Below are positions 9,679 through 50,932 of a stretch of 64,000 nt of DNA, in pieces. A model generated the notes under the pieces. That model had not been told where the DNA came from. It saw only the letters and a program-made list of their open reading frames with translations, and did not search any database. Position numbers and translations under genes: made by a program. Source of the DNA: Candidatus Kaiserbacteria bacterium (lineage in GTDB: Bacteria > Patescibacteriota > Minisyncoccia > Phycocordibacterales > UBA2100); contig JACRFI010000016.1 of NCBI GenBank assembly GCA_016217965.1, forward strand, positions 1,837 through 65,836, written 5' to 3'. Each line of letters starts with the position of its first letter. Position 1 is the first letter of the stretch.

Positions 9679-9724
9679 TCTGTTGTTGTCGGACAATTCT
9701 GGCGGCTAAAATGTGCGATAATAC

Positions 9725-10948: not shown

Positions 10949-10951
10949 TGC

Positions 10952-13198: not shown

Positions 13199-13229
13199 TC
13201 ACCAGTCATTAGTCATAAGTCACAAGAGC

Positions 13230-13862: not shown

Positions 13863-13878
13863 TCCAAAGTCCAAAGTC

Positions 13879-29378: not shown

Positions 29379-30242
29379 ATGCAAAAAAGCACGAAAGTTC
29401 TACTCCTCGTGCTCGCGATACTTGTTCTCATCAACGCGGTTATCTGGTATGCGGTTATCCGGAATCAACGAGACGGCACGCTCACCGTTTCATTTCTCAA
29501 TATTGGGCAAGGGGACGCGACATTCATTGAATCGCCCAGTGGCGTACAGGTCCTCATCGACGGCGGCAAAGGGCGTGCGGTACTTCGTGAACTGTCTGGC
29601 GTCATGCCATGGTTCGATCGTTCAATCGATGTTGTTATCGGCACTCATCCGGACCAAGACCACATCGGCGGGCTTCCTGATGTGCTTGCACGGTATCGCG
29701 TTTCGACGGTACTACGCTCGAGCGTTTTGGACGAAGAGGGTTCGGATTTTGCCGCATTCAACGAGGCAATCGCCAAAGAAAAAGAATCCGGCGGAGTGGA
29801 AATGATAGCTGAGCGCGGACAGGTATTTGACCTTGGAGATGGGGCCACGCTCACCATTTTATTTCCTGATCGAGATGTTCCTGGACTCGAAACAAATACA
29901 GGCTCTGTCGTCGCGCGGCTCAAATACGGAAACACATCGTTCATGCTGACGGGGGATTCGCCGCAAAGTATTGAAGAATATTTAGTGCGGCTCGATGGTG
30001 AGGCACTGCACTCGAGCGTCCTCAAAGCGGGACACCATGGTTCTCGCACGTCGTCATCGCCGCTTTTCGTGGGGTTTGTGGATCCGGAATACGCCGTGTT
30101 TTCTCGCGGATGCGACAATTCATACGGTCATCCGCATGAAGAAGTCGTGGAATTATTCAAACGGTTCGAAGTGCAAACGCGTGACACCTGCGATGGCAGG
30201 GTCACGTTCGTATCAGACGGGCAGAGTGTGCGGACTAGATGA
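29379..30242 (+). CDS. MBL-fold metallo-hydrolase (ComEC C-terminal beta-lactamase-like domain as separate gene)
   Basis: N-terminal TM, 'VSFLNIGQGDA', 'GTHPDQDHIGG' HxHxDH motif. Confidence 0.75.
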   Translation: MQKSTKVLLLVLAILVLINAVIWYAVIRNQRDGTLTVSFLNIGQGDATFIESPSGVQVLIDGGKGRAVLRELSGVMPWFDRSIDVVIGTHPDQDHIGGLPDVLARYRVSTVLRSSVLDEEGSDFAAFNEAIAKEKESGGVEMIAERGQVFDLGDGATLTILFPDRDVPGLETNTGSVVARLKYGNTSFMLTGDSPQSIEEYLVRLDGEALHSSVLKAGHHGSRTSSSPLFVGFVDPEYAVFSRGCDNSYGHPHEEVVELFKRFEVQTRDTCDGRVTFVSDGQSVRTR

Positions 30243-31236: not shown

Positions 31237-31653
31237 ATGGCCACAATCAACCAATTGATCAAACGCGGCAGGCACGACAAAATACGCCGCACAAAGACCA
31301 TCGCCCTGGGGCGCGGTTTCAATACGCTCAAAAACAGGCCTACGTTCTATCCTGCGCCCTTCAAACGCGGTGTGTGCACTCGCGTCACCACGAAAACCCC
31401 TCGTAAACCGAACTCGGCTATCCGAAAGATCGCCCGCGTCCGCCTCACGAACGGCATGGAGATCACCGCATACATTCCAGGAGAGGGACACAATTTGCAG
31501 GAACACTCGGTTGTCTTGGTACGCGGAGGTCGCGTGAAGGACATCGGACTTCGATACACAATAGTACGTGGCAAGCTTGATACCGCAGGCATCGAGAAGC
31601 GCCGACGTGGCCGTTCGCTCTATGGTGCAAAGCGCCCGAAAGGAGATAAATAA
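31237..31653 (+). CDS. rpsL: 30S ribosomal protein S12 (with about 14-aa N-terminal insertion)
   Basis: 'KRGVCTRV…PNSA(I)RK…RVRLTNG…[10 protein letters not shown](V)RGGRVKD' conserved core. Confidence 0.9.
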
Positions 31654-31656
31654 TCT

Positions 31657-32118
31657 ATGAGACGCGCCGTAAAAAACAGAAAGCAACCGGAACCAGATCC
31701 TGTATACGGATCATTCAAAGTCGCGAAGCTCGTCAATTACGTGATGGAGCGCGGCAAGAAGGATACGGCGCGCAAGATTGTGTACAAAGTGATGGAAGAG
31801 TTGAAGAAAGAAGGGGACCCTGTCCTCATTCTTGAAGATGCGCTTGATAAGGCATCTCCGACGGTGGAAGTCCGCTCTCGCCGCGTTGGTGGTGCGAACT
31901 ACCAGGTTCCGCGCGAAGTTCGTCCTGAAAGGCGTCTCGCGCTCGGTATGCGTTGGATTGTTGAAGCTGCGGAATCAAAAAAAGGAGTCCCGATGGCAGA
32001 AGCGCTTCTCGTAGAATTGAAAGCGGCTCACAAAGGAGAGGGTGAGGCAGTCACGAAGAAAGAAACGACTCATAGGATGGCAGAGGCAAACAAAGCGTTT
32101 GCGCACTTTGCGTGGTAA
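31657..32118 (+). CDS. rpsG: 30S ribosomal protein S7
   Basis: S7 core 'VEVRSRRVGGANYQVP'. Confidence 0.9.
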   Translation: MRRAVKNRKQPEPDPVYGSFKVAKLVNYVMERGKKDTARKIVYKVMEELKKEGDPVLILEDALDKASPTVEVRSRRVGGANYQVPREVRPERRLALGMRWIVEAAESKKGVPMAEALLVELKAAHKGEGEAVTKKETTHRMAEANKAFAHFAW

Positions 32119-32598: not shown

Positions 32599-34740
32599 AT
32601 GGCAAGAGACTATCCACTAGAAAAAGTCCGTAACTTTGGGATTGTCGCGCACGTGGACGCGGGCAAAACAACCACATCCGAACGAATTCTGTACTACACC
32701 GGAGAGAGCCATAAGATCGGCGAAGTGCACGAAGGGAACACGGTCACAGACTGGATGGAACAAGAGAGGGAGCGCGGCATCACCATCACCGCCGCTGCCA
32801 TCACATGCTTCTGGAACCCAACGTACATGGGGACGGATATATCGCAGAAAGTCCGCTTCAACATTATTGATACCCCAGGACACATCGACTTTACGTCTGA
32901 AGTGAAGCGTTCGATGCGTGTTCTCGACGGAGCGGTTGTCGTGTTTGACGGCGTTGCAGGCGTTGAACCGCAGTCAGAGACGAACTGGCGCTACGCAGAA
33001 GAAGCAGAAGTGCCGAGAATTTGTTACATCAACAAATTGGACCGCACCGGAGCGTCTTTTGAGAAGTCCTATGCGTCCATTCTTGATAGGCTTTCTACCA
33101 AGGCAGTTCGCCTGCAGATCCCAATCGGCGCTGAGGGAGATTTTGAAGGTGTCGTGGATGTTTTGGAAATGAAAGCGTTCAAATTCGAAGGCGAGATGGG
33201 GAAGAATGTCGTTGCATACGATATCCCGGATAGCCTCAAGGCCGATGCGCAGAAATATCACGATGAGGTGGTAGAACGAATTGTTGAGACTGATGATGCG
33301 ATGATGACGGAATTTCTCGAGGGGAAGAAGCCGTCGCTTGAGGCGCTCAAGAAGCAATTGCGCGCTGCCGTCTGCACGAACAAGCTCTTTCCAGTCCTCA
33401 CGGGATCGTCTCTCAAGAACAAGGGGGTGCAGCGCGTTCTTGATGCGGTTGTTGACTATCTGCCGTCGCCTCTCGATCTTCCATCGGCGAAGGGAATCAA
33501 TACTGATACTGGTGCCGAAGAAACTCGCCCAGCAACCGACGATGGACCGTTTGCTGCGCTTGTATTCAAGCTCCAAGTTGACCCATTCGTCGGCGCTCTC
33601 ACATTCTTCCGCGTATATTCTGGGCATGTTGCTGCGGGGGACACTGTATACAATTCTGCGAACAACAAGAAAGAACGCATTGGGCGCATGGTGCGTTTGC
33701 AGGCGGACAAGCGCGAGGACGTGAAAGAAGTTTTTGCGGGCGAAATTGCTGCATTCGTCGGCATGAAAGAAGTAAAAATTGGAAATACGGTCTGCGACGC
33801 AGAGCATCCAATTGCGCTCGAGAAAATAATCTTCCCGGAACCCGTTGTTTCGATGCGCATCGAGCCGAAGACAAAGGCAGACCAGGAGAAAATGGGCATC
33901 GCACTCTCGCGCCTTTCGGACGAGGACCCGACATTCCGCATCAAATCTGATCCGGAGACCGGAGAGACCATCATTTCCGGAATGGGTGAGCTGCACCTAG
34001 AGATAATCGTCGATCGCATGAAGCGCGAATTTGCAGTTGAAGCGACGACAGGAAAACCGCAAGTTGCGTACCGCGAGACGATAACAGGTACGGCGGATGT
34101 CGAATACAAGCACATCAAGCAGACAGGCGGTCGCGGCCAGTACGGCCATGTGAAGATCCGCATGAAGCCGCTCGAACCAGTCGAGGAGGGAAAAAAGGTG
34201 AAGAACAACGTCGAGCGCGAAGACCATTTCGAATTCATCAACAACATCAAAGGCGGCGTCATCCCGCAGGAATACATCCAGCCCATCAAGAAGGGACTCA
34301 AAGAAGCGATGGATCGCGGCGTTCTCGCGGGCTTTCCCGTTGTTGATGTATCAGTCGATCTCTACGACGGTTCATATCACGAAGTTGACTCGTCCGAGAT
34401 CGCATTCAAACTCGCTGCCATTAATGCATTCCAAGATGCGGCTAAACTCGCGAAGCCTGCACTTCTCGAGCCGATCATGAAATTGGAAGTCGTCACGCCG
34501 GAAAAATTCATGGGCGATGTGACGGGCATGATAAATAGTAAGCGTGGTTCCATAGAGGCTATGGGCGAGCGCGGCCAAGCGCGAGTCATCACCTCCAAAG
34601 TCCCACTTTCGGAGCTTTTCGGATTCACCACACAGCTTCGCTCCGCGACCGAAGGCCGCGGTGTTCCCAACGTCGAATTCTCGCATTACGCCGTTGTACC
34701 GCGGAATGTGGCAGACGAAGTTATTGCAAGCAGAAAGTAG
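32599..34740 (+). CDS. fusA: elongation factor G
   Basis: G-domain 'AHVDAGKTT', 'DTPGH', full five-domain EF-G length 713 aa. Confidence 0.95.
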   Translation: MARDYPLEKVRNFGIVAHVDAGKTTTSERILYYTGESHKIGEVHEGNTVTDWMEQERERGITITAAAITCFWNPTYMGTDISQKVRFNIIDTPGHIDFTSEVKRSMRVLDGAVVVFDGVAGVEPQSETNWRYAEEAEVPRICYINKLDRTGASFEKSYASILDRLSTKAVRLQIPIGAEGDFEGVVDVLEMKAFKFEGEMGKNVVAYDIPDSLKADAQKYHDEVVERIVETDDAMMTEFLEGKKPSLEALKKQLRAAVCTNKLFPVLTGSSLKNKGVQRVLDAVVDYLPSPLDLPSAKGINTDTGAEETRPATDDGPFAALVFKLQVDPFVGALTFFRVYSGHVAAGDTVYNSANNKKERIGRMVRLQADKREDVKEVFAGEIAAFVGMKEVKIGNTVCDAEHPIALEKIIFPEPVVSMRIEPKTKADQEKMGIALSRLSDEDPTFRIKSDPETGETIISGMGELHLEIIVDRMKREFAVEATTGKPQVAYRETITGTADVEYKHIKQTGGRGQYGHVKIRMKPLEPVEEGKKVKNNVEREDHFEFINNIKGGVIPQEYIQPIKKGLKEAMDRGVLAGFPVVDVSVDLYDGSYHEVDSSEIAFKLAAINAFQDAAKLAKPALLEPIMKLEVVTPEKFMGDVTGMINSKRGSIEAMGERGQARVITSKVPLSELFGFTTQLRSATEGRGVPNVEFSHYAVVPRNVADEVIASRK

Positions 34741-34784
34741 GTTGCGCTGGCAAAAATCCACAGTTATCGCTCAAATAGACTTGC

Positions 34785-34809
34785 ATTATCGCTCATAATG
34801 AGCGATAAT
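34785..34809. promoter_or_regulatory. perfect 12+1+12 palindrome ATTATCGCTCAT-a-ATGAGCGATAAT (operator-like) upstream of fic-like gene
   Basis: Half-site 'TTATCGCTCA' also at 34764-34774 and as 'ATGAGCGATA' overlapping the ATG at 34820. Confidence 0.5.
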
Positions 34810-34819
34810 GTGATTTAAT

Positions 34820-35875
34820 ATGAGCGATAGTAATCTCAGTCAAAGACAGGCTTCCATACTTGCCAGTATGGGACTTGATACAGACTATTCAGCAGAAAGC
34901 TTGGCGAACTTGTTCGACATTGCTCCTGCCCCAGCGACATTGCGCAGAGACATGCAAAAATTGGAATTACACGGCTACGTAACTCGGCGAGGAGAAAAAA
35001 GGGGAAGGAAATATGCAAAGACGGAACTTGGTGCCCTCTTGAGCCCCTTGGATGCACACGCGTACTTCCTCAAAGAAACAGATGTGCGCCGCGGATTAAA
35101 GACGTATCGTCACGGACTCTGGAATGCCGTACCTGAATCTCTTTTCACCACAGGTGAGCGAGCCGCATTCGCTGCTGCTACCGACATCTATCACGCGCGA
35201 TCGCGCGATATTTCCGAGGTCGTGCGTGCGAAGGAGCTTGAACGCTTCGTGATCGAGCTTTCGTGGAAATCTTCGAGGATCGAAGGCAATACGTATACGC
35301 TTCTTGATACCGAGCGCCTTCTGCGTGAGGGAGTGGAGGCACCCGGGCATGGGAAAGGCGAGGCTATGATGATTCTCAACCACAAGAAAGCGTTCCAGTA
35401 TATCTTGGAATCAAAAAATAAGCGTGAGTTTGTGAATAAGCATTTTGTCGAGGATGTGCATGGCATTCTTGTCGAGAATCTCGGCGTATCACGAGGATTC
35501 AGAAAGGGCGTTGTCGGGGTCACCGGCTCTTCGTATCGGCCTCTCGACATTCCCGCGCAACTGGAAGAAGAGACTGGCGTCTTGTGCCAGGCTGCGGCAC
35601 AGATCAAAGACGCGTATTCGCAAGCACTTCTCATGCTCGTTGGAATAAGTTATATACAGCCTTTTGAAGATGGCAATAAGCGCACCGCGCGACTCATTGC
35701 AAATGCGGTTCTCATTGCGCACGAGAAGGCGCCGCTCTCATATCGAAGCGTCGATGAAACGCTCTATCGCGAAAGTATGCTTACGTTCTACGAACAACTC
35801 TCCATCGTCCCAATGAAAAAGATATTCTCTGATCAATATCTTTTCGCCTGCGAACAGTATCTGAAAAGTTCGTAA
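34820..35875 (+). CDS. Fic/Doc-family protein with N-terminal wHTH-like region and degenerate motif [12 protein letters not shown]
   Basis: Fic/Doc core '[20 protein letters not shown]' (canonical HxFx[DE]GN[GK]R; His replaced by Gln). Confidence 0.7.
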
Positions 35876-35933
35876 AAACGGGTTTTCCGTCAAACACTCC
35901 AGTAGAATCTGCCAGCTTCAAGAGCCTGACCAT

Positions 35934-36081
35934 TGCCAAAGTGCCGCTTTCGGAGCTTTTCGGATTCACCACACAGCTTCGCTCCGCGACCGAAGGCCGC
36001 GCCGTCCCGAACCTTGAGTTCTCGCACTACGTCGTAGTACCACGTAATGTGCAGGAGGAGATAATTGCGTCTCGTAAGTAA
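35934..36081 (+). repeat. fusA 3'-end remnant copy 1 (encodes …[47 protein letters not shown])
   Basis: About 56 nt identical to 34601-34656 of resident fusA then diverged; ends with in-frame stop. Confidence 0.85.
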
Positions 36082-36129
36082 TTCCCAAATACCTGTCCCC
36101 ACCGCGGCCGCCCTGAGCGAAGTCGAAGG

Positions 36130-38412
36130 GTGGCCGCGTGTCATGATGTGTGCATGAACAAAAGCGTTGTAGCGTTTGTGGCAGTCGTCGCGTCGTTTTT
36201 CGTCCCCTTTTTCGCCTCGGCACAAGTTCCTACACCGTCTGCCGGAGGACCGTATTCTGGCGGCGTAAATCCAACCATCAGTTCCCAAAGTGGTACTTCC
36301 GTCGGCGTGTCTATCTCTTCTGTCGGGTCGAACACGTCTATTTCACAATCTTTTGTATGTCCGACGTTGATTCGCACCCTTGTCCGCGGTTCTCGAGGCG
36401 GTGATGTCGCTGGAGTACAAAATTTTCTCATCGCCCAAAAAGATTTGGCGGCAGGCAACAACACCGGCTACTTCGGTACTCTCACTGAAACGGCAGTGAA
36501 ATCGTTCCAGCGAAGAAATAATATAGTCTCAAGTGGCACACCAGGAACGACGGGGTATGGCCTCGTCGGCGCAAAGACACGTGCGGCGATCCAAAGAGCA
36601 TGTGCTGGATCAATGGCCGCACCAACCAATTCGTACTCGTCTCCATCACTAGGTTCGAATTCAGAAATAGACAAACTCCTCGCGCAGATTCAATCGCTTC
36701 AGGCGCAAATGAACCAGGAAGCTAACAAGAGCACTGGAAATTCTTCGGGGACAACGTATGTGCAAGGCTCGTACGCACAAACAAACGCGCCTGTGTATTC
36801 GGAAACGAATTATTACAATCAGGGATCATATACACCCACAGACGACCAGGTCCGACCAGCTTCACCACCGTACTATGGGGTTAACTATTTCGCATCTGGA
36901 TACGGGAATTTCCTCACGGACCAGTTCGATGTGTCAAGGACGCGCATCCAGAACGACATCGGACTCATGCAAAGCATGGGAATCAACGTCGTACGTATAA
37001 GCGTCGCCGGTTTCGCCAACGGGCTTGTGCCATGGACCTACAACCAACCGCGGGGACGAGAATATTTCGACACAGCAAATTGGGAGCTTGCCGGAAACAA
37101 CCTTGCAAAGTTGATCAAGCAATTTAAAGCAGCCCGCATAAAAGTTATTGTGGATTTTGTATCGATAAATTATTTCTTGTTCGCACCGAGCGCGACTGAA
37201 CTCGCCATCCACCCAGTAAGCCAGGCATGCAAAGACGGGTTTGCGTCCGGTTCGATGGGCGTATGGTGGCAGTGCCGGTATCCGAACAGATGGGATGATT
37301 TTGTATGGGACTATACGACCTGGGTGAACGGCATCGTGTGGCTCGTCGAGAATGATTCCGAGGCAGCGTCAAACGTCCTCTACTACGATCCGATCGGAGA
37401 ACTCCAATTTTCGGACCGGACAGGCACCGACATGAAGGCATTCGCGAACATCATTATCGCAAACAACAACATTCCGGCAGGGAAACTTGGCATATCGGTA
37501 CTTAATCCTGAATCGACCACTCCCGCCTCAATCGCGCTTCCGAACCTTAAAACTCTTCTCGATGCGGCAGGCAAAAAACTTTCGTTCATTGATGTGCATT
37601 GTTATCCTGGTATCTCTTGTGCGTTTGGTAGCCAGACTGTTGCCCAGTGGTTTACGGACGCATATACAAATGCGCGGAGATCATTTCCCGCATCTGAAAC
37701 AAAGTTTGTCGTGGGAGAATGGGGCTCCAATTATGATGGTGGAAAAGGCTTGGGCCAAGCGAATTACGATGCACAAGTTGTCAATTGGGCGAAATCCAAC
37801 GGCGATGTCACGGCGCTCGTGCACTGGAATCTCTATGATGACAATCCGAGTTACAACGAATATCACATCGGAGTTGCGCCGACGGCCGGCGTTGCGCAAG
37901 GTACACGAAATACCTATATGGTCCTCGGGACGATGCGCGGGGACTTAATCGATGGTGATTTTGAAAGTGGTATTTCGAAGTGGTTTAACGGCGGCAGTGG
38001 GTCGAACCTAAAGCAGATGCCCATCGAAGCAGTGACGGGTTCGTACTATGGACGCATGCAGGTGACGGCACCCGGACAAAATTGGTTCTGCACGCCAAAT
38101 TTCGTGCTCGCCAATGGCACGCATGTCGCGACCGGCGGTTTCATTCGGACAGCACTTGCAAATGTGACGCTTTCGACCCGATATTTCGATTCAAATTGGA
38201 AACTGATCGGGCAAGATGACATCACGCTTACACAACCAGCGGCTTGGCAGTGGCGGCAAATACAAGAGCAATCGCTGTCAAAACGCGCTACTACGTGGAC
38301 GGGTGCCCCTTATGCTGCACAGGTTTGCTTCGTTTTGAACGGTCCAGCTGGCACATCCGCTACAAATCCGCAGTATCTTGATTTGGATTCGATCACGGTG
38401 CACGATTATTAG
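36130..38412 (+). CDS. secreted peptidoglycan-binding-domain protein with GH5-like TIM-barrel glycoside hydrolase domain
   Basis: Probable true start ATG 36154 (MNKSVVAF…, signal peptide); PG_binding_1-like 'GDVAGVQNFLIAQKDL…GYFGTLTETAVKSFQ'; 'GINVVRISV' and 'VVGEWGSNYDGG' GH5-like strands. Confidence 0.6.
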   Translation: MAACHDVCMNKSVVAFVAVVASFFVPFFASAQVPTPSAGGPYSGGVNPTISSQSGTSVGVSISSVGSNTSISQSFVCPTLIRTLVRGSRGGDVAGVQNFLIAQKDLAAGNNTGYFGTLTETAVKSFQRRNNIVSSGTPGTTGYGLVGAKTRAAIQRACAGSMAAPTNSYSSPSLGSNSEIDKLLAQIQSLQAQMNQEANKSTGNSSGTTYVQGSYAQTNAPVYSETNYYNQGSYTPTDDQVRPASPPYYGVNYFASGYGNFLTDQFDVSRTRIQNDIGLMQSMGINVVRISVAGFANGLVPWTYNQPRGREYFDTANWELAGNNLAKLIKQFKAARIKVIVDFVSINYFLFAPSATELAIHPVSQACKDGFASGSMGVWWQCRYPNRWDDFVWDYTTWVNGIVWLVENDSEAASNVLYYDPIGELQFSDRTGTDMKAFANIIIANNNIPAGKLGISVLNPESTTPASIALPNLKTLLDAAGKKLSFIDVHCYPGISCAFGSQTVAQWFTDAYTNARRSFPASETKFVVGEWGSNYDGGKGLGQANYDAQVVNWAKSNGDVTALVHWNLYDDNPSYNEYHIGVAPTAGVAQGTRNTYMVLGTMRGDLIDGDFESGISKWFNGGSGSNLKQMPIEAVTGSYYGRMQVTAPGQNWFCTPNFVLANGTHVATGGFIRTALANVTLSTRYFDSNWKLIGQDDITLTQPAAWQWRQIQEQSLSKRATTWTGAPYAAQVCFVLNGPAGTSATNPQYLDLDSITVHDY

Positions 38413-38419
38413 TCTTCGC

Positions 38420-38485
38420 TTCGTTCTCGCACTATGCGATTGTCCCAAAAACGTTGCAGATGAAGTGATCGCCTCGCGCAAATAG
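38420..38485 (+). repeat. fusA 3'-end remnant copy 2 (…FSHYAIVPKNVADEVIASRK*, 1-nt frameshift)
   Basis: Matches last about 22 codons of fusA. Confidence 0.75.
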
Positions 38486-38554
38486 AAAACGTCACATGGC
38501 ATAGCCTGAACAATGTCCACAGGCGTCTCCGCTGCCCCATTGAAAAAAGCAAGA

Positions 38555-38562
38555 GGGGGGGG
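38555..38562 (+). repeat. G8 homopolymer tract 13-20 nt upstream of ATG 38575
   Basis: 'aagaGGGGGGGGtagcattgggacATG'. Confidence 0.8.
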
Positions 38563-38574
38563 TAGCATTGGGAC

Positions 38575-39858
38575 ATGAAAAACATCCCACGGGTTGGTGT
38601 GCTTATCAGTGCTATTCTCCTTGCGCCTGCGTTCGCGGCAGCTCAAGACGCGCTCGGAAGTCCTATGCCTTCAATGGGTCCGGGAATAATTTGCCAAGCG
38701 GAAATGAATGCCGCCATTGCGGTCGGTCTGCAAAATAGGGAAAAGGCCGAGGTAAAGGCGCTCGATGCGTGCCTAAAAAATAACGCGTCGACACTACCCA
38801 TGCCCTCAATGACCTCTGAGGCAAGCGACTCTGGCAGCGTAACATCGGGTATTACCCCGAACACGAATGGCAGCGGCGCTTCATGCCCCAAAATTCTTCG
38901 TACGCTTTTCGTCGGCAGCACTGGGGATGACGTGGTGGCATTGCAGGTATTCCTTATTGCGCAAGGCGATCTTGCCGCAGGCAATACCACCGGCTACTTT
39001 GGCGTTCTTACGGAAGCGGCGGTAAAAGCATTTCAGTCGGCGCATGGTATAGAGAACGCTGGCATGGTGGGTCCGAAGACTCGCGCGGCGATCGCGCAAA
39101 TATGCGGCGGTACCGTTTCCACGAACACCCCTTCCTCTAGCGGCGGTTCAACGGGCAATCAATCGCTCATTGATTCGCTTCTACAGCAGATAAAAGTTCT
39201 GCAGGAGCAGATAAAGAATATCTCAGGGAACACAAACACAAACACAAATACGAATACAACGTCAACCAACACCAATACGACATCAACCAATATCAACACA
39301 ACTTCTTCGACTGCCGCGACTCCGCAAACTTTCGACTACATGGCGTCATTCCATTCCGGCCCGCAATCTGGGGGCGACCAGAGCCTGGCGCCGTACTTCG
39401 GCCAGAACCCGTCGGGACCATGGTGGTATGGGTATGCGGATTCCGTAACCGGCGCGACGAAGTTCATGTCGTGGGACGGGACCGTCCCCTCATGGATCGG
39501 CGGCTATGGAGGATTCCCGCGTCTCTACAACTGGGGTGGGTACGTCTACGGCTCGTCGGCAATAATCGTTTGGGTGGCACCGCGTGCGGGTACCGTCACG
39601 ATAGCCGGAAGTGTCTCGCGACAAGGGATTGGCGGGGCTGATGCGACGTGCTCAGGCGCGACGCCGATCGTCGCGTATGTCTATCAGGATGGAAAGGCTT
39701 TGTGGTCGGCGAGCATGATGCCGGGAGATGCTGGCAAAGCGTATTCACTCTCCGGCACAGTGAATCAGGGCAGCAACGTGTCGTTCATCATGCAGCCGGC
39801 AGGTGCAAGCCCGGCCTGCAACATCGTGTACTGGAATCCGACTGTCGTGCTTAAATAA
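38575..39858 (+). CDS. secreted peptidoglycan-binding-domain protein with (TN)n linker
   Basis: Signal peptide 'MKNIPRVGVLISAILLAPAFAAA', PG_binding_1-like 'DDVVALQVFLIAQGDL…GYFGVLTEAAVKAFQ', 'NTNTNTNTNTTSTNTNTTSTN' linker, C-terminal beta domain. Confidence 0.65.
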   Translation: MKNIPRVGVLISAILLAPAFAAAQDALGSPMPSMGPGIICQAEMNAAIAVGLQNREKAEVKALDACLKNNASTLPMPSMTSEASDSGSVTSGITPNTNGSGASCPKILRTLFVGSTGDDVVALQVFLIAQGDLAAGNTTGYFGVLTEAAVKAFQSAHGIENAGMVGPKTRAAIAQICGGTVSTNTPSSSGGSTGNQSLIDSLLQQIKVLQEQIKNISGNTNTNTNTNTTSTNTNTTSTNINTTSSTAATPQTFDYMASFHSGPQSGGDQSLAPYFGQNPSGPWWYGYADSVTGATKFMSWDGTVPSWIGGYGGFPRLYNWGGYVYGSSAIIVWVAPRAGTVTIAGSVSRQGIGGADATCSGATPIVAYVYQDGKALWSASMMPGDAGKAYSLSGTVNQGSNVSFIMQPAGASPACNIVYWNPTVVLK

Positions 39859-39879
39859 AAAGTTCGCATACCCACTAAC

Positions 39880-39945
39880 CCAAAGTTTGATGCTGGGTGC
39901 TGAATTTGGAATTCTCTCACTACGCTATCGTCCCCAGAAATGCCT
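39880..39945 (+). repeat. fusA 3'-end remnant copy 3 (internally deleted; …EFSHYAIVPRN…)
   Basis: 'ccaaagt' junction plus 'gaattctctcactacgctatcgtccccagaaatg'. Confidence 0.65.
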
Positions 39946-40044
39946 GCCCCGTTAGAACTTTAGTTTCTAATGGGGTTGCTAACTAAGTGATAGGCGCGAG
40001 GACGCTCGTATTGACGAATTGGCTAATTGGGCTACTATTGGCGC

Positions 40045-40314
40045 ATGAGCAAGATAACCATGCCTACATTTGCGGCGAGCGAGGCGAAGAATAACTTCGG
40101 GAGGCTTATCGATGCCGCGCAGCGCTCGCCTGTCGCGATCAAGCGGCGCGGCCGCTCCGTTGCGTTCGTCATCTCGCCGTCAGACATGGAGACGATTGAG
40201 GATCTATGGCTGGGTATGCAAGCGCATAAAGCGATGCGGCGAGGTAAATTCTTGAGCGCTGAGGAAACGAAGAAATATATGGACGGTGTGCTGAAGCACC
40301 ATGCTCGACGTTAG
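40045..40314 (+). CDS. Phd/YefM-family antitoxin
   Basis: 'MPTFAASEAKNNFGRLIDAAQRSPVAIKRRGRSVAFVISPSDMETIEDL' YefM fold signature; overlaps toxin gene by 14 nt. Confidence 0.7.
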   Translation: MSKITMPTFAASEAKNNFGRLIDAAQRSPVAIKRRGRSVAFVISPSDMETIEDLWLGMQAHKAMRRGKFLSAEETKKYMDGVLKHHARR

Positions 40315-40576
40315 GATACTCGACGAGGCGCAGGAAATCCTGGATGCGCTATCAGAAAAACATCGGCATCAAATTGTCAAAAAGATCGCACTGCTCGCGC
40401 AGCAGCCATATCACCCGCGTTCGAAACAGTTGGAAGGATATGCGCCGCTTCGACGCATGTCTTCTGGAGAATATCGCATTGTGTATTTCATTGAGGGCAA
40501 AGTTCTGAAAGTTCCGCTTATCGATAAGCGAGGGGATAACAAAGTATACCGACGACTTAAGCAGTTATTCGGATGA
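40301..40576 (+). CDS. RelE/ParE-family toxin
   Basis: 91 aa, 'PLRRMSSGEYRIVYFIEGKVLKV' RelE/ParE C-terminal core. Confidence 0.75.
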   Translation: MLDVRILDEAQEILDALSEKHRHQIVKKIALLAQQPYHPRSKQLEGYAPLRRMSSGEYRIVYFIEGKVLKVPLIDKRGDNKVYRRLKQLFG

Positions 40577-40605
40577 TAAATTGCTTTGAACGTCGTTATC
40601 GAAAA

Positions 40606-40773
40606 AAAGCCTGCTCTCCGAAATGTTCGGATTTACAACACAATTACGGTCGTTGACGGAGGGAAGATCTGTCCCAAACCTCGAGTTTTCTCACTACCCC
40701 AGTAGGTGATTGTACTCAATCAGCTGTTGTCCCTCGAAATGTTGCGGATGAAGTTATTGCGGCGAGGAAATAG
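40606..40773 (+). repeat. fusA 3'-end remnant copy 4 (…[26 protein letters not shown]-[28-bp insert]-VVPRNVADEVIAARK*)
   Basis: Translated similarity to EF-G C-terminus ending in in-frame TAG. Confidence 0.8.
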
Positions 40774-40785
40774 AAAAATCCTCTC

Positions 40786-40836
40786 CACACACTGCCGCGC
40801 TTAATGCGCGGCAGTGTGTCATGATTACCGCATTAC
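40786..40836 (+). promoter_or_regulatory. 14-bp perfect hairpin (CACACACTGCCGCGC-ttaat-GCGCGGCAGTGTGT) followed by GTGTCATGATTACCGCATTAC box
   Basis: Same architecture at 20008-20048, 36103-36147, 42595-42636 upstream of paralogous genes. Confidence 0.55.
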
Positions 40837-42577
40837 ACATCACCCATCTCTATTCATGCTAAAAAAAGTCGCATTCAGCAGCATCGGATTACTCCTCCTA
40901 ATCTCTCCGTTCGCAGCATCTGCAGATCTCCTTAGCGACCTCCAAGCGCAGATACAAGCACTTCTTGCGCAGATTGCGGCATTGCAGGGGACATCAATGA
41001 TCCCTGACTCGGACACTCCGACAGAGCATCCGACATCATCATGCCCACATCTGACAGTCGCTCTCCAACGGGGCAGTCGCGATGCAAATACGGGAGGACA
41101 AGTCTCAGAACTTCAAATATTTCTCGCAAATCGTTACGGTCTCAACGACGATGATATCGTGAGCGGATTCTTCGGCGCAATGACAGAGAAATACGTCATC
41201 AAATTCCAACAAGAACAAGGACTTCCCGTGTTCGGCCTCGTAGGTCCTATGACCAGGGCGAAGATCGCAGAGGTGTGCGGGGGCATCATCTCTCCGTCGA
41301 ATGCCGCATCCGAGGCAAACCCGGTACTTGTCTTTCCGCCTCGTAGAATCACGAGCGACACAAACAGCTTCTCCAACAGCTTCTCCGCGTCGCCGATGTC
41401 AGGAAGTGCGCCACTCACCGTAACGTTCTCCATGACTCAATACGGGGCGAGATCCCTACTGATAGATTTCGGAGACGGTGCGGTACAAAAAACCGACGAC
41501 TCTTGCCTTGTCGGCCCGGATTGTAAAGAACCGTACGTACGTTCGCACACTTACATCTCACCAGGCACGTATATTGTCCGACTCTCAAATGCATCCGTCT
41601 GCGACGCGCCACCCGGGGTACTGTGTTCACTCGCCCCCGATCAGATTGTCGGTACGGTGACGATCACCGTCACGGACGGGACCCGCAAATGTGGTGTAAA
41701 TTCATTTAAAGTAGTGAACCAATGTGGCACAAGCGAATACAGAAATGCGTACTTCCAGTGTTATGACGGGTATGAGCAGACCATCGGTGAGAGCAGTTCG
41801 TGCAAACCGCCCTCGGTATGGGAAGAATATGCCCGCGATGCGTGTGCCAAACATTGTTCGAACACTGCAAGCAGTATTACCGTCACATCACCCAATGGCG
41901 GAGAGCAGATCGAAATCGGACAGCCACATAAAATTACTTGGAAACAAGTCGGGCTCTCGAATGTATCCATTGCACTGTACAGAGACGATCAAGTGAAACA
42001 GTGGATTGCGCGAGATATTAGCTTGGAGAAAGATGCCGTTGACACATATGCGTACGTCTGGACACCGGCGCAAACCGACACTAACATTAATGCGTTCACA
42101 ATCTACATCACCGGCCCAAAAGCCGACGGCACAGGCTCCATCGACGACAAAAGTGACGCTCCATTCAGTTTTGCCAGTGATGCAAGCGGAGTGTGTCAAG
42201 TTGTTGACCTCTACGCCACGCAAGTCCCGGGGTATGTCTACTCTGATCTCTTTATGGTCGTGCGCGGACTGCCGACAGGATCTGGTCAGGTTAGTATCAC
42301 CGGAGCAGATTCATGGAACAATTTGATGTTCTCTTCCCAGGGGCTTGATTCTGCGGGAAATCTCCTCTTGCAAGCAAATCAAACGATTAATTCGACGGGT
42401 GTCTCGTATATTCTTGAGCGCGAGAATGCCATCACGCCAATTTCCTACGGCGGTGTATCAATATCGTGTCAATCTATTTCTGGCACGACCGCATCCGCAC
42501 AGAGTACGCAATTAGCATCAGCACTCGTTGCACTCGAATCAGCCCTCAAAGCAATGCTGAAATTGTTGGGGCAATAG
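40814..42577 (+). CDS. secreted peptidoglycan-binding-domain protein with PKD-like domains
   Basis: Probable true start ATG 40856 (MLKKVAFSS… signal peptide); coiled coil; 'GQVSELQIFLANRYGL…GFFGAMTEKYVIKFQ'; 'FGDGAVQKTDDSC' PKD-like. Confidence 0.65.
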   Translation: MCHDYRITHHPSLFMLKKVAFSSIGLLLLISPFAASADLLSDLQAQIQALLAQIAALQGTSMIPDSDTPTEHPTSSCPHLTVALQRGSRDANTGGQVSELQIFLANRYGLNDDDIVSGFFGAMTEKYVIKFQQEQGLPVFGLVGPMTRAKIAEVCGGIISPSNAASEANPVLVFPPRRITSDTNSFSNSFSASPMSGSAPLTVTFSMTQYGARSLLIDFGDGAVQKTDDSCLVGPDCKEPYVRSHTYISPGTYIVRLSNASVCDAPPGVLCSLAPDQIVGTVTITVTDGTRKCGVNSFKVVNQCGTSEYRNAYFQCYDGYEQTIGESSSCKPPSVWEEYARDACAKHCSNTASSITVTSPNGGEQIEIGQPHKITWKQVGLSNVSIALYRDDQVKQWIARDISLEKDAVDTYAYVWTPAQTDTNINAFTIYITGPKADGTGSIDDKSDAPFSFASDASGVCQVVDLYATQVPGYVYSDLFMVVRGLPTGSGQVSITGADSWNNLMFSSQGLDSAGNLLLQANQTINSTGVSYILERENAITPISYGGVSISCQSISGTTASAQSTQLASALVALESALKAMLKLLGQ

Positions 42578-42649
42578 TTTCAATGGGATCTATCCACACA
42601 AAGCTGCCTCGATCGAGGCGGCTTTGTGTCATGATGAGGGTATAACGGC

Positions 42650-43276
42650 ATGGCTTCTTTCATCATGTTTAAAAAGGTAGCGTGTGGCCTCGGATTATTT
42701 CTGCTCGTTACCCCGCTCGCTGCATCAGCGGCTCCGGTGGACGAACTCTACCTGGAATCACAATTGCACGTGTCAGAGATACTCGCTCTTCAAGTACGTT
42801 TGAACGCATTATTGACGCAGCTTGCGATATTGCAGGGACAACAGACCAACCAAGTGCCACTGCATCCAACCACGTGCCCCAAGCTCACTGTTTCTTTTTC
42901 ATTCGGTGCGTACGGCAATGATGTCTTAGAACTCCAGCGATATTTGGTCACCAACGGCTATTTAACCGCAGATTCAGTCACAGGGTTTTTTGGCGATACA
43001 ACCGATGCCGCTGTCAGGCGTTTTCAACTGGACCGAGGCATTGTGCATGGAGGAACGACGCGAACGACCGGGATCGGGATAGTGGGCCCTGCGACGAGGT
43101 TGGCGATCGCGACAAGTTGCAGTTATGGAACAGACGGCAATTACGCAACATCAACCATCGCCGCTTCGACATCGCCATCAACTACGAATACGGATCTAGT
43201 GTCGCAACTCACGATCATCTCGCAACAATTGCAGATATTGCGCGAACAAGTTCTTAACCTGCAGGCGCAGCATTGA
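42650..43276 (+). CDS. secreted peptidoglycan-binding-domain protein (short paralog)
   Basis: Signal peptide, 'NDVLELQRYLVTNGYL…GFFGDTTDAAVRRFQ', C-terminal coiled coil; RBS 'gaggg' 9 nt upstream. Confidence 0.65.
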   Translation: MASFIMFKKVACGLGLFLLVTPLAASAAPVDELYLESQLHVSEILALQVRLNALLTQLAILQGQQTNQVPLHPTTCPKLTVSFSFGAYGNDVLELQRYLVTNGYLTADSVTGFFGDTTDAAVRRFQLDRGIVHGGTTRTTGIGIVGPATRLAIATSCSYGTDGNYATSTIAASTSPSTTNTDLVSQLTIISQQLQILREQVLNLQAQH

Positions 43277-43336: not shown

Positions 43337-44857
43337 GTGTCCATGCTTTCGCGCGCACGTGCATTTGGGAGGATGATGCTTCGTATCCTGTTACTCTTAG
43401 TAATATTTGGCGTGTTCGCGCCGAACTTTACATTCGCGCAGTCCTGTTCCATTTCAATTTCGCCCCAGACGGGCGTTGCGGGTTCGGGAAGGACGTTGTA
43501 TTGGTCCGTCAGCGATTATGTCGGGACGCTCGACATCAGTGGTATCGGACGTGTGGTTACAACATGTTATGCATCGGGAGAGGGTAACGGCGGTTGTACC
43601 ATGCCCCCAGTTTCCGGATCTCTCGGTATTTCGCCGTCCTATTCCACAACCTACACTGGTACAGCAGTAGACGTCTGGGGGACGGATACCTACTGCTCCG
43701 ACACCGCATACGCCACGCCCGCATACTCCCAGGCTAGTTACTACGCCCAATCCTACTACCAATCCTCATACTACAGCCCCGCCTCCTGCTCCGTCTCCCT
43801 CTCGCCAAACCCCAAATCATACGCCGGCAGCGCCACGCTCTCATGGTCCTCCTCGCAGGCACACTACTGGGTCTACATCAATAACGTCGGCTATGTGGGA
43901 GGGAGCGGCTCCATTTCAGTCTCACCATCATCAAGCACCGACTATTCCTGCTACGCGAATGGCTACGGCGGCTCTGACGGCTGGCACAGCTACACACTCA
44001 CGGTGAATCCGCCTGCCAACTGTTCCTTCAACGGCTCGACAGTCAATCACGGCAGTTCAGTCACGGCATACCAAGCAGCCACCGTCCCATACGGGCAGTC
44101 ATGTGCTTCACAATCACAATCACGCAGCTGCTCAAACGGCACGCTCTCGGGCACATACCAGTACGAAAGCTGTACCGTCGACAACCCAGCGCCTACTTGC
44201 TCTATTGCTGTCGCACCAACCACCATCACATCAGGAGAGTCTTCAACACTCACCTGGTCCTCATCAAACGCTACGACTTGCACCGGCACCAATTTCTCAA
44301 CTGGTGGTGCGACATCAGGCTCCACATCGGTCTCTCCTTCATCTAGCACCAACTACTCTGCAAGTTGCACTGGTACTGGTGGCACGACAGCATGCACTGA
44401 CACGAGCAGTGGAGGAGGGGGCGACACCACAGCCACTCTGTCAGTTGCTTGCACCGAAAGCTGGGCATGCACCGGTTCTCCAAGCAACACCATCACACAC
44501 ACCTTAGCGAATTGCTCGACAGAAACCGTTGACACCTGCGTCACGCCAGAGTTTTGTACCACAGGCTCCGCCACCTGCCTCTACAACGCGGTCTCAGGCT
44601 CCATCAGCGCTTCCCCCCGCTTGGTACGATCCGGCGCCACCACACAAGTCTCGTGGAGCACTGACGATGCGTCCTCGTGCACCGTCACAGGCAATGGAGA
44701 CACGTGGACCGGCACCACAGGCTCACAAACATCAAGCCCGATCACCGAACTCACCACCTACACCATCCATTGTGATGATGGTGATCCTGACAGTACACAA
44801 GATGATTTCACAGACAGGGTGATTGTGGTGAGGTTGCCGGGGTGGTTGGAGTTATAA
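43337..44857 (+). CDS. secreted Cys-rich Ig-like repeat surface protein (paralog of 47073 gene)
   Basis: Signal peptide, repeated 'C…SLSPNPK…TLSWSS…', Ser/Thr/Gly-rich; last about 360 aa about 85-90% identical to 47073 product; C-terminal 'VRLPGWLEL'. Confidence 0.6.
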   Translation: MSMLSRARAFGRMMLRILLLLVIFGVFAPNFTFAQSCSISISPQTGVAGSGRTLYWSVSDYVGTLDISGIGRVVTTCYASGEGNGGCTMPPVSGSLGISPSYSTTYTGTAVDVWGTDTYCSDTAYATPAYSQASYYAQSYYQSSYYSPASCSVSLSPNPKSYAGSATLSWSSSQAHYWVYINNVGYVGGSGSISVSPSSSTDYSCYANGYGGSDGWHSYTLTVNPPANCSFNGSTVNHGSSVTAYQAATVPYGQSCASQSQSRSCSNGTLSGTYQYESCTVDNPAPTCSIAVAPTTITSGESSTLTWSSSNATTCTGTNFSTGGATSGSTSVSPSSSTNYSASCTGTGGTTACTDTSSGGGGDTTATLSVACTESWACTGSPSNTITHTLANCSTETVDTCVTPEFCTTGSATCLYNAVSGSISASPRLVRSGATTQVSWSTDDASSCTVTGNGDTWTGTTGSQTSSPITELTTYTIHCDDGDPDSTQDDFTDRVIVVRLPGWLEL

Positions 44858-47072: not shown

Positions 47073-48680
47073 ATGTCGGGGACGCGTTCCTATGTCGTCG
47101 TTCTTACGTTTGTGGCGCTCTCTATCGCCCCGTATTTTGCGCACGCTGCGTCGCTGCCGGGCGGTGTCTTCAACCTCATCATGCGCTCCGACGGCCTGTG
47201 CATGGACGTGTACGCCAACCAGGCCGTGAGCGGCCAAAACATCGACAACTGGCACTGCAACGGTACGACAGCTCAGACGTTCCGCGCCGAGTCGCTCGGC
47301 GGCGATGTGTACCGCATCATCAACACAAATTCCGGCATGTGCGTGGACGTCTACGGAAACGACACCAGTGAAGGAGCAGATGTGGTCCAAGCGTGGTGCA
47401 ATGGGTCCAGCGCGCAATCGTTCCAGGCTGCTGATGCTGGCAGCGGGTATGTGTATCTCGTCAACACCAATAGCGGCAAGTGCGTAGGATTCGGCGGCAC
47501 GTTCCAGTGGCAAAATACCGACCAAGGCAATTGGCAGTGGGTTCCGGACGTGCGGATGTATTCGTGTAATGGCGCCGCCGACCGGCAGTGGTATCCGGCA
47601 GCGCCCGCATCGTGTTCCATCTCCCTCTCACCGAATCCGAAAGACTATGCCGCAGCGGCGACGCTTTCCTGGTCAAGCTCATACGCAAACTCCTGGCTCT
47701 ACATCAATAACGTGGGATACGTGGGGGCTTCCGGCGCAGTTACCGTCGCGCCAACTTCAAATACCGACTATTCATGCGTCGCCTACGGTTCCGGCGGCAG
47801 CGACGGCTGGCACAGCGCAATCTTGTACGTGAATGCTCCTTCCAATTGCACCGCGCCGTGGGGAAGCGCAGTCTCGCACGGCTCGTCTGTCATCGCATAC
47901 CAAGCAGCAACGGTGCCATATGGTTCCTTGTGCGTTTCCCAAACACGCTCTTGTTCTAACGGAAGCCTCAGCGACTCATACGAGTATCAATCCTGCTCCG
48001 TGGATAATCCTGCACCCACCTGCTCCATCTCTGTCGCTCCAACCACAATTACCTCAGGAGAATCATCAACACTCACCTGGTCCTCATCAAATGCCACGAC
48101 CTGTACCGGTACCAATTTCTCCACAGGAGGCGCCACCTCCGGCTCGACATCAGTATCTCCCTCATCCAGCACCAACTACTCTGCAAGTTGCACAGGTACC
48201 GGGGGCACAACAGCATGCACTGACACGAGCAGTGGAGGAGGAGGCGACACCACCGCCACTCTGTCAGTTGCATGCACTGAAAGTTGGGCTTGCACCGGCG
48301 CAGGCGGAAGCACCATCACACACACCTTAGCGAATTGCTCAACAGAAACCATCGACACCTGCGTCAGCCCTGAGTTCTGCACCACAGGCTCTGCCCTCTG
48401 CCTCTACGACGCCGTCACCGGTTCCATCACTGCTTCCCCCCGCCTCGTCACCTCAGGCAAGACGACAACCGTCTCCTGGTCTACTGACGATGCCGTCTCC
48501 TGCACTGTCACAGGAAACGGAGACACCTGGATTGGTACCTCAGGCTCACAGACATCAAGCCCCATCACCGAACTCACTACGTACACCATCCGCTGTGATG
48601 ATGGCGACCCTGATACCACACAAGACGATTTCACAGACAAAGTGCATATCGTGCGGTTGCCGGGGTGGTTGGAGTTATAA
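47073..48680 (+). CDS. secreted ricin-B-lectin + Ig-like repeat surface protein
   Basis: Signal peptide; beta-trefoil repeats with Q-x-W ('AQTF','AQSF','RQWY') and 'CMDVY/CVDVY'; C-terminal about 360 aa paralogous to 43337 gene. Confidence 0.7.
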   Translation: MSGTRSYVVVLTFVALSIAPYFAHAASLPGGVFNLIMRSDGLCMDVYANQAVSGQNIDNWHCNGTTAQTFRAESLGGDVYRIINTNSGMCVDVYGNDTSEGADVVQAWCNGSSAQSFQAADAGSGYVYLVNTNSGKCVGFGGTFQWQNTDQGNWQWVPDVRMYSCNGAADRQWYPAAPASCSISLSPNPKDYAAAATLSWSSSYANSWLYINNVGYVGASGAVTVAPTSNTDYSCVAYGSGGSDGWHSAILYVNAPSNCTAPWGSAVSHGSSVIAYQAATVPYGSLCVSQTRSCSNGSLSDSYEYQSCSVDNPAPTCSISVAPTTITSGESSTLTWSSSNATTCTGTNFSTGGATSGSTSVSPSSSTNYSASCTGTGGTTACTDTSSGGGGDTTATLSVACTESWACTGAGGSTITHTLANCSTETIDTCVSPEFCTTGSALCLYDAVTGSITASPRLVTSGKTTTVSWSTDDAVSCTVTGNGDTWIGTSGSQTSSPITELTTYTIRCDDGDPDTTQDDFTDKVHIVRLPGWLEL

Positions 48681-48958: not shown

Positions 48959-50158
<1,200 letters not shown>

Positions 50159-50298: not shown

Positions 50299-50529
50299 AT
50301 GACTCAAAAAGTTCTTAAGGTCGGCTCTTCGGCAGCGGTCACGATACCAAAGAAGTCTCTTGCCGAACTCGGCCTCAAGATCGGCGATCGCGTGACTTTG
50401 ACCGTCAATAGGGAGCATAAGAGTATCGTGGTTCAGCCATCTGTGTCTGTGGACGCCGAGACGGTGCAATGGGCGCGAGATTTCATCGAAAAATATCGCT
50501 CTGCGCTCGAGGCGTTGGCGCGTCAGTAG
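50299..50529 (+). CDS. AbrB/MazE/SpoVT-type antitoxin (Phd-equivalent for Doc)
   Basis: 'KVLKVGSSAAVTIPKKSLAELGLKIGDRVTL' swapped-hairpin motif; 2-nt spacing to toxin gene. Confidence 0.65.
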   Translation: MTQKVLKVGSSAAVTIPKKSLAELGLKIGDRVTLTVNREHKSIVVQPSVSVDAETVQWARDFIEKYRSALEALARQ

Positions 50530-50530
50530 C

Positions 50531-50932
50531 ATGCGATACCTCTCAGCGGAGGAATTACTAGTCCTCCATGCGCTCGTTGTTGATGAGACAGGCGGTTCGC
50601 ATGGCGTGCGTGATACGGCGCTTCTCGCGTCAATTGCGCACAAGCCGCAAGCAAAATTTGATGGGAAAGATCTATACCCAACTATTTTTCTGAAAGCGGC
50701 GATACTTCTCGAAGCGGTTGCTAATTACCACGTTTTTATCGACGGGAACAAACGTACGTCGTTCATTGCGGCTGCGAGATTCTTGTTCGTGAATGGATAT
50801 AACATTACGGCAGACAACGTAGATGTCGAGAAGATTGTAGTTGCTGTCGCAATGAAGAAGTTAGCGATTGGGGAGCTTGCGGAATGGCTTAAAGAAAATA
50901 GTTCGAGTATCTACATCCATGCCAAAAAATGA
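50531..50932 (+). CDS. doc: Doc (death-on-curing) Fic-family toxin
   Basis: 'HVFIDGNKRTSF' Doc motif HxFxDGNKR. Confidence 0.8.
   Translation: MRYLSAEELLVLHALVVDETGGSHGVRDTALLASIAHKPQAKFDGKDLYPTIFLKAAILLEAVANYHVFIDGNKRTSFIAAARFLFVNGYNITADNVDVEKIVVAVAMKKLAIGELAEWLKENSSSIYIHAKK

Follow-up and report, generated by a model that had tools for sequence, protein, structure and literature searches.

The array at the 3′ end of fusA

The window analysed here is a 64,000-nucleotide stretch of contig JACRFI010000016.1, from a Candidatus Kaiserbacteria bacterium. It contains a str operon in which the intact fusA gene, encoding elongation factor G (EF-G), is followed by four partial copies of its own 3′ terminus, called remnants 1 to 4. 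The remnants are separated from the gene and from each other by inserted units, called cassettes; each has its own promoter and consists of one gene or one toxin-antitoxin pair. Starting at fusA and reading 5′ to 3′, the features of the array are these (PG, peptidoglycan; aa, amino acids; HTH, helix-turn-helix; ORF, open reading frame).

32599-34740, plus strand: intact fusA (EF-G, 713 aa), from the ORF list
34606-34660, plus strand: tract of 55 nt within the fusA end, equal to 35947-36001
34661-34740, plus strand: working fusA 3′ end beyond the identity tract
34765-34829, plus strand: palindromic operator and promoter of cassette 1 (inverted repeat I1)
34820-35875, plus strand: HTH-Fic gene of cassette 1, which spans 34765-35875 (Pfam Fic, E = 7e-11, with HTH_DeoR)
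35935-36081, plus strand: remnant 1, fusA aa 666-713 and stop, with an intact 46-codon frame
36130-38412, plus strand: cassette 2, a 760-aa secreted protein with PG_binding_1 (Pfam)
38414-38485, plus strand: remnant 2, fusA aa ~690-713 and stop, with a 1-nt frameshift, left-truncated
38575-39858, plus strand: cassette 3, a 427-aa PG_binding_1 protein (Pfam)
39880-40002, plus strand: remnant 3, made up of a left part (39880-39942), a palindrome (39943-39976) and a degenerate right part (39977-40002)
40011-40038, plus strand: promoter of cassette 4 (promoter scan)
40027-40314, plus strand: Phd antitoxin gene of cassette 4, which spans 40011-40576 (Pfam)
40301-40576, plus strand: ParE/RelE toxin gene of cassette 4 (Pfam)
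40596-40773, plus strand: remnant 4, fusA aa 664-713 and stop, with a 25-nt palindrome at 40698-40722
40787-40819, plus strand: perfect 14-bp stem-loop 3′ of remnant 4 (inverted repeat I20)
40814-43276, plus strand: run of resident PG_binding genes distal to remnant 4

The remnants are detected by three kinds of search. With the FusA protein of the window as query, tblastn matches 35935-36081 (aa 666-714, 85.7% identity, E = 3.6e-21), 40596-40697 together with 40708-40773 (aa 664-697 and 693-714, E = 4.8e-15), 38421-38485 in two frames (E = 1e-3) and 39897-39947 (E = 7e-3). The same four sites emerge from an nhmmer search in which 80 fusA ends were combined in a nucleotide profile, with E values of 4.7e-26, 7.8e-18, 2.8e-5 and 0.017, and an independent repeat search recovers them as families D1-D4 and D7. 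The four copies described in an initial annotation of this DNA thus exist at or near where it placed them, while their extents are revised: copy 2 begins at ~38414, copy 4 at ~40596, and copy 3 is longer, reaching ~40002 and split by its palindrome. Its description of the copies as progressively more diverged is only roughly right: each of copies 2-4 is disrupted and copy 1 is not, yet copy 4 ranks second in length.

Remnant 1 starts with 19 nt of diverged homology to resident fusA, continues as 55 nt of complete identity, and then falls to ~70% identity over the last 73-87 nt. The identical run had been given as about 56 bp and is exactly 55 nt, 34606-34660 matching 35947-36001. The protein of cassette 2 had been labelled GH5, and this label is not supported, since only PG_binding_1 was matched in Pfam, NCBIfam and PDB sequence searches. 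The stem-loop 3′ of remnant 4 may be the former fusA terminator; comparable hairpins lie 3′ of fusA in three related loci (L001, L085 and L152; loci of other genomes are given L numbers throughout). An Rfam scan of 34500-41000 gave one sub-threshold match to a miRNA family and nothing credible, and a search of the window turned up no remnant of tuf, rpsG or rpsL and none of the 5′ end of fusA.

Origin and variation of the termini

The resident fusA end and the four remnants differ by 128 mismatches, of which 26, 18 and 84 fall at the first, second and third codon positions respectively (chi-square p = 6e-14). The peptides encoded by the remnants are 70-87% identical to the end of FusA (tblastn). 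In a local duplicate that was decaying, changes would be equally frequent at all three codon positions. The third-position bias therefore indicates that each remnant diverged as the end of a functional fusA in a separate lineage, and not in place. Judged by their sequences, the remnants are foreign, formerly functional fusA ends and not decayed local copies.

The termini also differ in their nearest neighbours. For the last 74 nt of remnant 1 the best matches are the resident fusA ends of the nearest relatives (L001 81%, L182 82%), and for remnants 2-4 the resident end of L087, whereas the working fusA end of the window is closest to termini linked to Fic cassettes elsewhere (L177 remB 87%, L171 T2 82%). 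Compared with the fusA end of L001, the working end is 70% identical and remnant 1 is 80% identical. This pattern indicates that the working end was imported and that remnant 1 is the displaced former end; segment 34661-34740 was probably imported together with the Fic cassette. The working end uses Ser AGC and Arg AGA, as do the Fic-linked termini of L171 and L085, but the Ser codon family (AGC versus TCN) is only suggestive as a marker of Fic-linked termini, AGY being found in about one-fifth of ...SRK ends. The downstream flanks of the five termini gave no blastn matches to the flanks of 160 fusA loci. Derivation of the termini from different alleles is thus borne out both by the codon-position bias and by the different nearest neighbours. 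The proposal that each unit carries its own fusA terminus also stands, with its geometry reversed: the terminus lies at the fusA-proximal (5′) side of the unit, and the remnant on the 3′ side is the displaced former end.

Content at this site varies strongly among relatives. The nearest of these, L001 (FusA 87% identical), L087 (86%) and L152 (in the 86-87% range), are without remnants and without any of the four cassettes, though the genes distal to remnant 4 have homologues in them. When the 46-aa frame of remnant 1 is used as query against the protein database, 13 other free-standing EFG_C mini-ORFs are found, in arrays of the same kind. The L177-180 arrays have three or four remnants and run in the order fusA, Phd/ParE, remnant, Fic, remnant, further genes, short remnant, PIN toxin-antitoxin pair, palindrome-bearing remnant, PG_binding genes. 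In L173-176 and L183 a pair of Fic genes is enclosed by two remnants, and Phd/ParE comes next (of the L173/L183 pair, only in L173). L181 has a DUF4258/DUF2283 pair between fusA and the remnant, L182 a Phd pair, L003 a PG_binding gene, and L171 a Fic gene between fusA termini that is 70% identical to that of the window, with the same palindromic operator. Across the other Kaiserbacteria the cargo is mostly toxin-antitoxin pairs, Fic genes and peptidoglycan-binding proteins. Homologues of cassette 4 lie at fusA termini in L173 (72% and 76% aa identity) and L177 (70% and 54%), and the position of the Phd/ParE pair changes from proximal in L177 to distal in the window and after the second remnant in L173. 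The remnants are thus supported at the nucleotide level and the arrays are not the same in all relatives, and the first proposal, that foreign units integrated repeatedly with the 3′ end of one protein-coding gene as their hotspot, is supported.

Several further observations concern these loci. The Fic cassettes of the window (34765-34829), L171 (~125-175) and L085 (~170-215) share an operator, TTATCGCTCAT-N-ATGAGCGATAA, that overlaps the Fic start; its position suggests that the gene may be autoregulated by the N-terminal HTH domain of the Fic protein. Homologues of Fic are found at fusA in L085 and L171 and in unrelated chromosomal contexts in L081-084, L167-170 and L172, so Fic itself is not tied to the fusA site. 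Fic homologues were considered as a guide to the donor element and rejected, since their contexts elsewhere are unrelated to fusA. Directly upstream of the two remnants in Kaiserbacteria GW2011_GWB1_52_6 (L173 926-5964, also L174-176) there is a diversity-generating retroelement (DGR; RVT_1, bAvd and Lcl_C targets) and three more Fic genes; in L173-176 fusA itself is >10 kb away or on another contig, and the DGR is a separate unit. Within one Kaiserbacteria population the array differs between strains: at ~10183-11865 a 434-aa gene is called in L178-180 but is missing from the calls of L177, and L180 has no ParE call. In L087 (6941-8816) rpsG is followed by a 318-aa secreted protein on the minus strand and then by a 3′ remnant of rpsG ~90% identical to its own end, and a copy of the first 17 fusA codons lies 200 nt 5′ of fusA (10001-10203). 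Two independent metagenome contigs, L085 (1-36) and L171 (1-24), begin inside the last fusA codons, and the repeated or variable fusA terminus evidently breaks assemblies there.

The left edges of the remnants are variable. Measured in nt before the stop codon, they lie at -222, -189, -166, -154, -145, ~-143, -137, -132, -114, ~-75, ~-70, -45 and ~-30. All fall inside the last 75 codons of fusA and seven cluster between -132 and -166, and no shared motif is found at the left junctions of the arrays compared. The identity tracts between neighbouring copies vary likewise, running from -135 to -81 in the window, -166 to -78 for L177 remA, -90 to -58 in L181, -105 to -20 in L003 and -62 to 0 between L177 remA and remB. 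Conservation of the fusA end in 37 relatives peaks from -135 to -95, with troughs at ~-160 and ~-77, and the 55-nt tract of the window falls on the best-conserved nucleotides. As a group the tracts follow this peak, among only ~8 events of which three end at -77 to -81. Their varying positions along the conservation profile are what crossovers between diverged sequences would give, and the window tract may be read as a crossover or gene-conversion tract. The diverged-identical-diverged mosaic of the window recurs, at other positions, in L181, L182, L003 and L177.

One breakpoint is seen directly at the level of strains. L173 and L183 are 99.9% identical over 3867 nt, up to a point that lies 77 nt short of a remnant's stop, and the DNA beyond it is unrelated; this is a recombination breakpoint inside a remnant, at the strain or population level. 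An older event is marked by a small palindromic insertion common to the distal remnants of the window and L177, where FusA is 85% identical and the proximal cassettes differ. The shared distal scar must be older than the split of the two lineages, and together with the differing proximal cassettes it fits addition at the fusA side.

Two kinds of palindrome are found inside displaced termini. The first is a conserved 34-42-nt palindrome (TGCCTGCCCCGTTAGAA, a loop, then TTTCTAATGGGGT), seen only inside displaced fusA termini, at 39943-39976 in the window, ~12519-12561 in L177, 12173-12211 in L006, ~4527-4562 in L023 and 34-63 in L171. In four of the five (window, L177, L006 and L023) it lies at the same codon, AAT G^T NGC, and splits a Val codon. 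There is one compensatory stem change in L177. The loop in the window is shorter than the fixed-spacing pattern, and this copy was detected by nhmmer. The palindrome belongs to no Rfam family and has no match in viral contigs. Two possible readings of it are a miniature element with a preferred target and a scar left by recombination. The second palindrome, GGTGATTGTACTCAATCAGC, interrupts remnant 4 (40698-40722) and is common to the distal remnant of L177 (~12485-12503).

Neither integrase nor resolvase is found in the window, where essentially all sizeable ORFs were compared with Pfam and NCBIfam, and the statement of the initial annotation that no integrase is visible is upheld for the whole 64 kb. 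None is present in the precomputed Pfam annotation of arrays L173-L183, an HTH_38 protein in L173 being the only other item to emerge from the hunt in related arrays. The sole recombinase-like gene of the window encodes an IS481-family transposase (51479-52726), downstream of tuf. ARAGORN finds no tRNA or tmRNA in the window. Genes for DNA uptake are present just upstream of the str operon: a split ComEC (26832-28352 and 29379-30242, with the Competence domain and the metallo-beta-lactamase in separate genes), type IV pilus genes (T2SSE, T2SSF and pseudopilins, 7518-15411) and RecJ (22102-23790). Together ComEC, the pilus and RecJ make uptake of DNA plausible.

The neighbours of the array are as follows.

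31237-31653, plus strand: rpsL, str operon, 5′ of fusA
31657-32118, plus strand: rpsG, str operon, with a small ORF between rpsG and fusA
48959-50158, plus strand: tuf (EF-Tu), the usual neighbour of fusA (Pfam)

The fusA-tuf spacing is 14,219 nt in the window and 35 nt to 6.6 kb in 93 related loci. Further PG_binding genes and other secreted proteins lie distal to remnant 4. A 506-aa gene (43787-44854) and a gene for a 535-aa ricin-lectin protein (47613-48677) share a C-terminal segment of 357 aa with 82% identity, which is a recent segmental duplication inside the fusA-tuf region. Directly after tuf are an AbrB-type antitoxin (50299-50529) and a Doc toxin (50531-50932); Doc phosphorylates EF-Tu. 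Beyond the IS481-family transposase there is an AbiEii toxin on the minus strand (52978-53646).

Proposed homology-anchored insertion and its alternatives

The explanation that we favour, with a confidence only a little above even, is serial homology-anchored insertion: every incoming cassette would carry a foreign fusA end, and the end already in place would be displaced. The 3′ end of fusA would be a gene-capture hotspot where recombination is anchored in the conserved last 150-220 nt. The donors would be related Kaiserbacteria, and the incoming piece would comprise a foreign fusA terminus, a short promoter/operator spacer and one gene or toxin-antitoxin pair. The geometry would be of the Campbell type (insertion-duplication), with the crossover in the most conserved nucleotides of fusA. 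This would join the body of the resident gene to the incoming terminus, keeping fusA intact, and would push the previous terminus downstream of the new cargo, where it would then decay. Four such rounds would generate the order fusA, Fic, remnant 1, PG-binding, remnant 2, PG-binding, remnant 3, Phd/ParE, remnant 4 and old downstream genes; the youngest cassette would adjoin fusA, and remnant 4 would be the oldest, distal terminus. The remnants may in addition serve as portable homology arms for cassette swaps between strains.

A dedicated integrase would not be needed. The enzyme would be the host homologous recombination system, and the DNA would enter by natural transformation and pass through a circular or tandem intermediate. 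Illegitimate joining would have made the original left junction in every family of cassettes. Toxin-antitoxin and Fic cargo may persist through counter-selection against loss between direct repeats, and only short, diverged repeats would survive, as long ones would recombine the cargo out. The initial annotation had left the choice between site-specific and homology-anchored integration, and the latter is favoured in that neither the left edges nor the identity tracts keep a fixed position.

Several points weigh against this explanation. Homologous recombination does not account for the origin of the first left junctions, nor for the confinement of every edge to the last 75 codons, which we assume to reflect the instability of long direct repeats. 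The DNA delivered by transformation is linear and single-stranded, and Campbell geometry then needs an extra step, such as circularization or bridging of sister chromosomes. The three independent tracts that end at -77 to -81 (window, L177 remA and L173/L183) would be matched equally by a fixed crossover site, and the conserved palindrome, at the same codon in four lineages, indicates that some sequence-specific activity acts at the locus. In addition, recA is not seen in the window, and every sequence used comes from a metagenome assembly.

An alternative that we regard as unlikely but serious is site-specific accretion, with a tyrosine or serine recombinase acting in trans from a gene located elsewhere in the genome or on a phage or plasmid. 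The cassettes would then be integrase-less elements like cis-mobilizable elements (CIMEs) or IMEX, with an attachment (att) site in the conserved fusA block, and the copy carried by the element would rebuild fusA. Tandem direct repeats and a reconstituted target are typical of such systems (PMC7563491; 10.1101/2020.12.28.424599). The common end of three independent tracts, the clustering of seven left edges at -132 to -166 and the palindrome at one precise codon in four lineages are all in keeping with a fixed site. Toxin-antitoxin cargo is likewise typical of integron-like platforms. However, an integrase is absent from the window and from the other arrays examined, and the left edges range from -30 to -222 with no junction motif. 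The tracts of L003, L181 and L177 remB share no common core, remnants 2 and 3 lack the presumed core entirely, and the edge at -77 corresponds to a trough in the general conservation of fusA. One fusA-specific integrase would also leave unexplained the L087 scars at the 3′ end of rpsG and the 5′ end of fusA; as read from the sequence, these argue against a single enzyme of this kind and for a general process.

Rather more tentatively, the arrays could represent an undescribed integron-like capture platform in Kaiserbacteria and related members of the candidate phyla radiation (CPR), anchored on the coding end of an essential gene. The copies of the fusA terminus may then be the recombination sites and the palindrome the mark of a dedicated sequence-specific activity, with toxin-antitoxin and surface cassettes circulating between lineages.

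It is improbable that the 34-42-nt palindrome is itself the driver. It would be a site-seeking element resembling palindrome-associated transposable elements (PATEs) or miniature inverted-repeat transposable elements (MITEs), which would hit the Val codon of ..RNV^AD.. in the fusA end and damage EF-G; only cells in which a foreign end, along with any gene behind it, took the place of the damaged one would survive, and this rescue would leave the scars and drive accretion. Its restriction to displaced termini and its presence at the same nucleotide in four of five cases speak for this, as do L006 and L023, where the 'cargo' is just the new terminus and a 23-31-nt spacer. Yet it is present in only one of the four window remnants, being absent from remnants 1, 2 and 4 and from most remnants at other loci, and insertion into remnants that were already dead would look alike. 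It has no associated transposase, Rfam family or viral contig match.

A local tandem duplication of the fusA end and the PG-binding gene downstream of it, after which the paralogues would have diverged and the duplicated ends decayed, is very improbable. Three of the four remnants do precede PG_binding_1 genes with a 37-52% identical domain, and a hairpin followed by the motif GTGTCATGAT lies downstream of both remnants 1 and 4. In-situ duplication is ruled out by the codon-position test, however, as the third-position bias denotes divergence under selection as working genes. Moreover, remnant 1 is nearer to the fusA ends of relatives than the resident end is, and neither the Fic nor the Phd/ParE unit is a paralogue of the rest; both are met again at the fusA termini of other genomes. 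Least credible of all is an assembly artefact in which strain variants of the fusA end were concatenated, for although the contig ends in L085 and L171 show that the repeat does break assemblies, remnants 2-4 are frameshifted, truncated or interrupted and so are not live alleles, every remnant is joined on its left to unique cargo, and the same architecture is present in independent NCBI, ENA, JGI and Logan assemblies, some from several samples.

Serial homology-anchored insertion would bear on how these bacteria acquire genes. The CPR (Patescibacteria) have tiny genomes and few recognizable mobile elements, yet their surface and defence genes are highly variable. The fusA locus offers a concrete route of acquisition, in which single-gene cassettes enter at the end of an essential and highly conserved gene. 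The replacement gene end on each cassette lets the host survive the insertion, and the displaced ends record the order of arrival. If homologous recombination alone is responsible, a conserved gene end would be a universal docking site between diverged lineages, free of integrase, and the mechanism would be simple and possibly widespread. Free-standing EFG_C mini-ORFs provide a marker for such hotspots in metagenomes, and assembly breaks at the fusA repeat matter for the quality of metagenome-assembled genomes.

Comparison with known systems

A survey of the literature on fusA as an integration site, or on CPR hotspots of this kind, found nothing relevant; the array is compared here with systems known at other genes. 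Of the features of site-specific islands and CIMEs, the array has direct repeats flanking its units and a rebuilt target (fusA of 713 aa), and has neither a recombinase in it or next to it nor a fixed att core. In streptococci, integrative and conjugative elements (ICEs), integrative mobilizable elements (IMEs) and CIMEs accrete in tandem at the 3′ ends of, for example, fda and a tRNA-Lys gene, where the repeats are att sites (PMC7563491). The fusA array shares with these the tandem stacking at the 3′ end of a housekeeping gene, the direct repeats of the gene end, the many units that lack recombination genes and the presence of decayed units (PMC7563491). The streptococcal units, however, are kilobase-long and derived from ICEs and IMEs, with integrase-cut att sites and an integrase on at least one partner element, whereas the fusA array has no integrase seen, variable edges and tracts, and units of one gene or one toxin-antitoxin pair. 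The likeness to tandem genomic islands drawn in the initial annotation thus holds for the architecture of accretion at a gene end, and does not extend to the units, which are not islands.

In Prochlorococcus, successive integrations of tycheposons at the same site push older elements inward and leave partial copies of the target (10.1101/2020.12.28.424599). The trail of partial target-gene copies and the adaptive or defensive cargo are common to both systems (10.1101/2020.12.28.424599). Tycheposons target tRNA genes by means of tyrosine recombinases, whereas the fusA array lies in a protein-coding gene and is without a recombinase.

The elements e14 and phage 21 insert in the icd gene of Escherichia coli, carrying a substitute 3′ end; both are single large elements with an integrase and a fixed att core. 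As at fusA, a replacement end is supplied and the old end is left as a pseudo-copy at the far junction, with differences that are mainly synonymous. The fusA units differ in being small, serial and without an integrase of their own.

Integron cassettes resemble the fusA units in forming compact arrays of single genes that are promoter-poor or self-promoted and rich in toxin-antitoxin pairs, with the newest nearest to the anchor. In contrast to integrons, there is no IntI, attI, or attC after each cassette, and the separators are copies of a coding-gene end; the palindrome at 39943-39976 is not placed 3′ of a cassette in the attC orientation. The template and variable repeats of a DGR were also considered and rejected, there being no match to a reverse transcriptase (RVT_1) in the window and the mismatches being of all kinds and third-position-rich, not adenine-specific.

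Insertion-duplication, homology-facilitated illegitimate recombination and the formation of merodiploids in transformation are known mainly from laboratory constructs and as single events. To our knowledge, they have not been described as a natural, reused site of capture that keeps an essential gene intact. The fusA array resembles them in that one short anchor suffices, the target segment is doubled, the crossovers lie in the longest identical runs and one junction is possibly illegitimate. As in a Campbell-type event, copies of the target segment flank the insert, and they are mosaics whose parentage changes at the run of identity.

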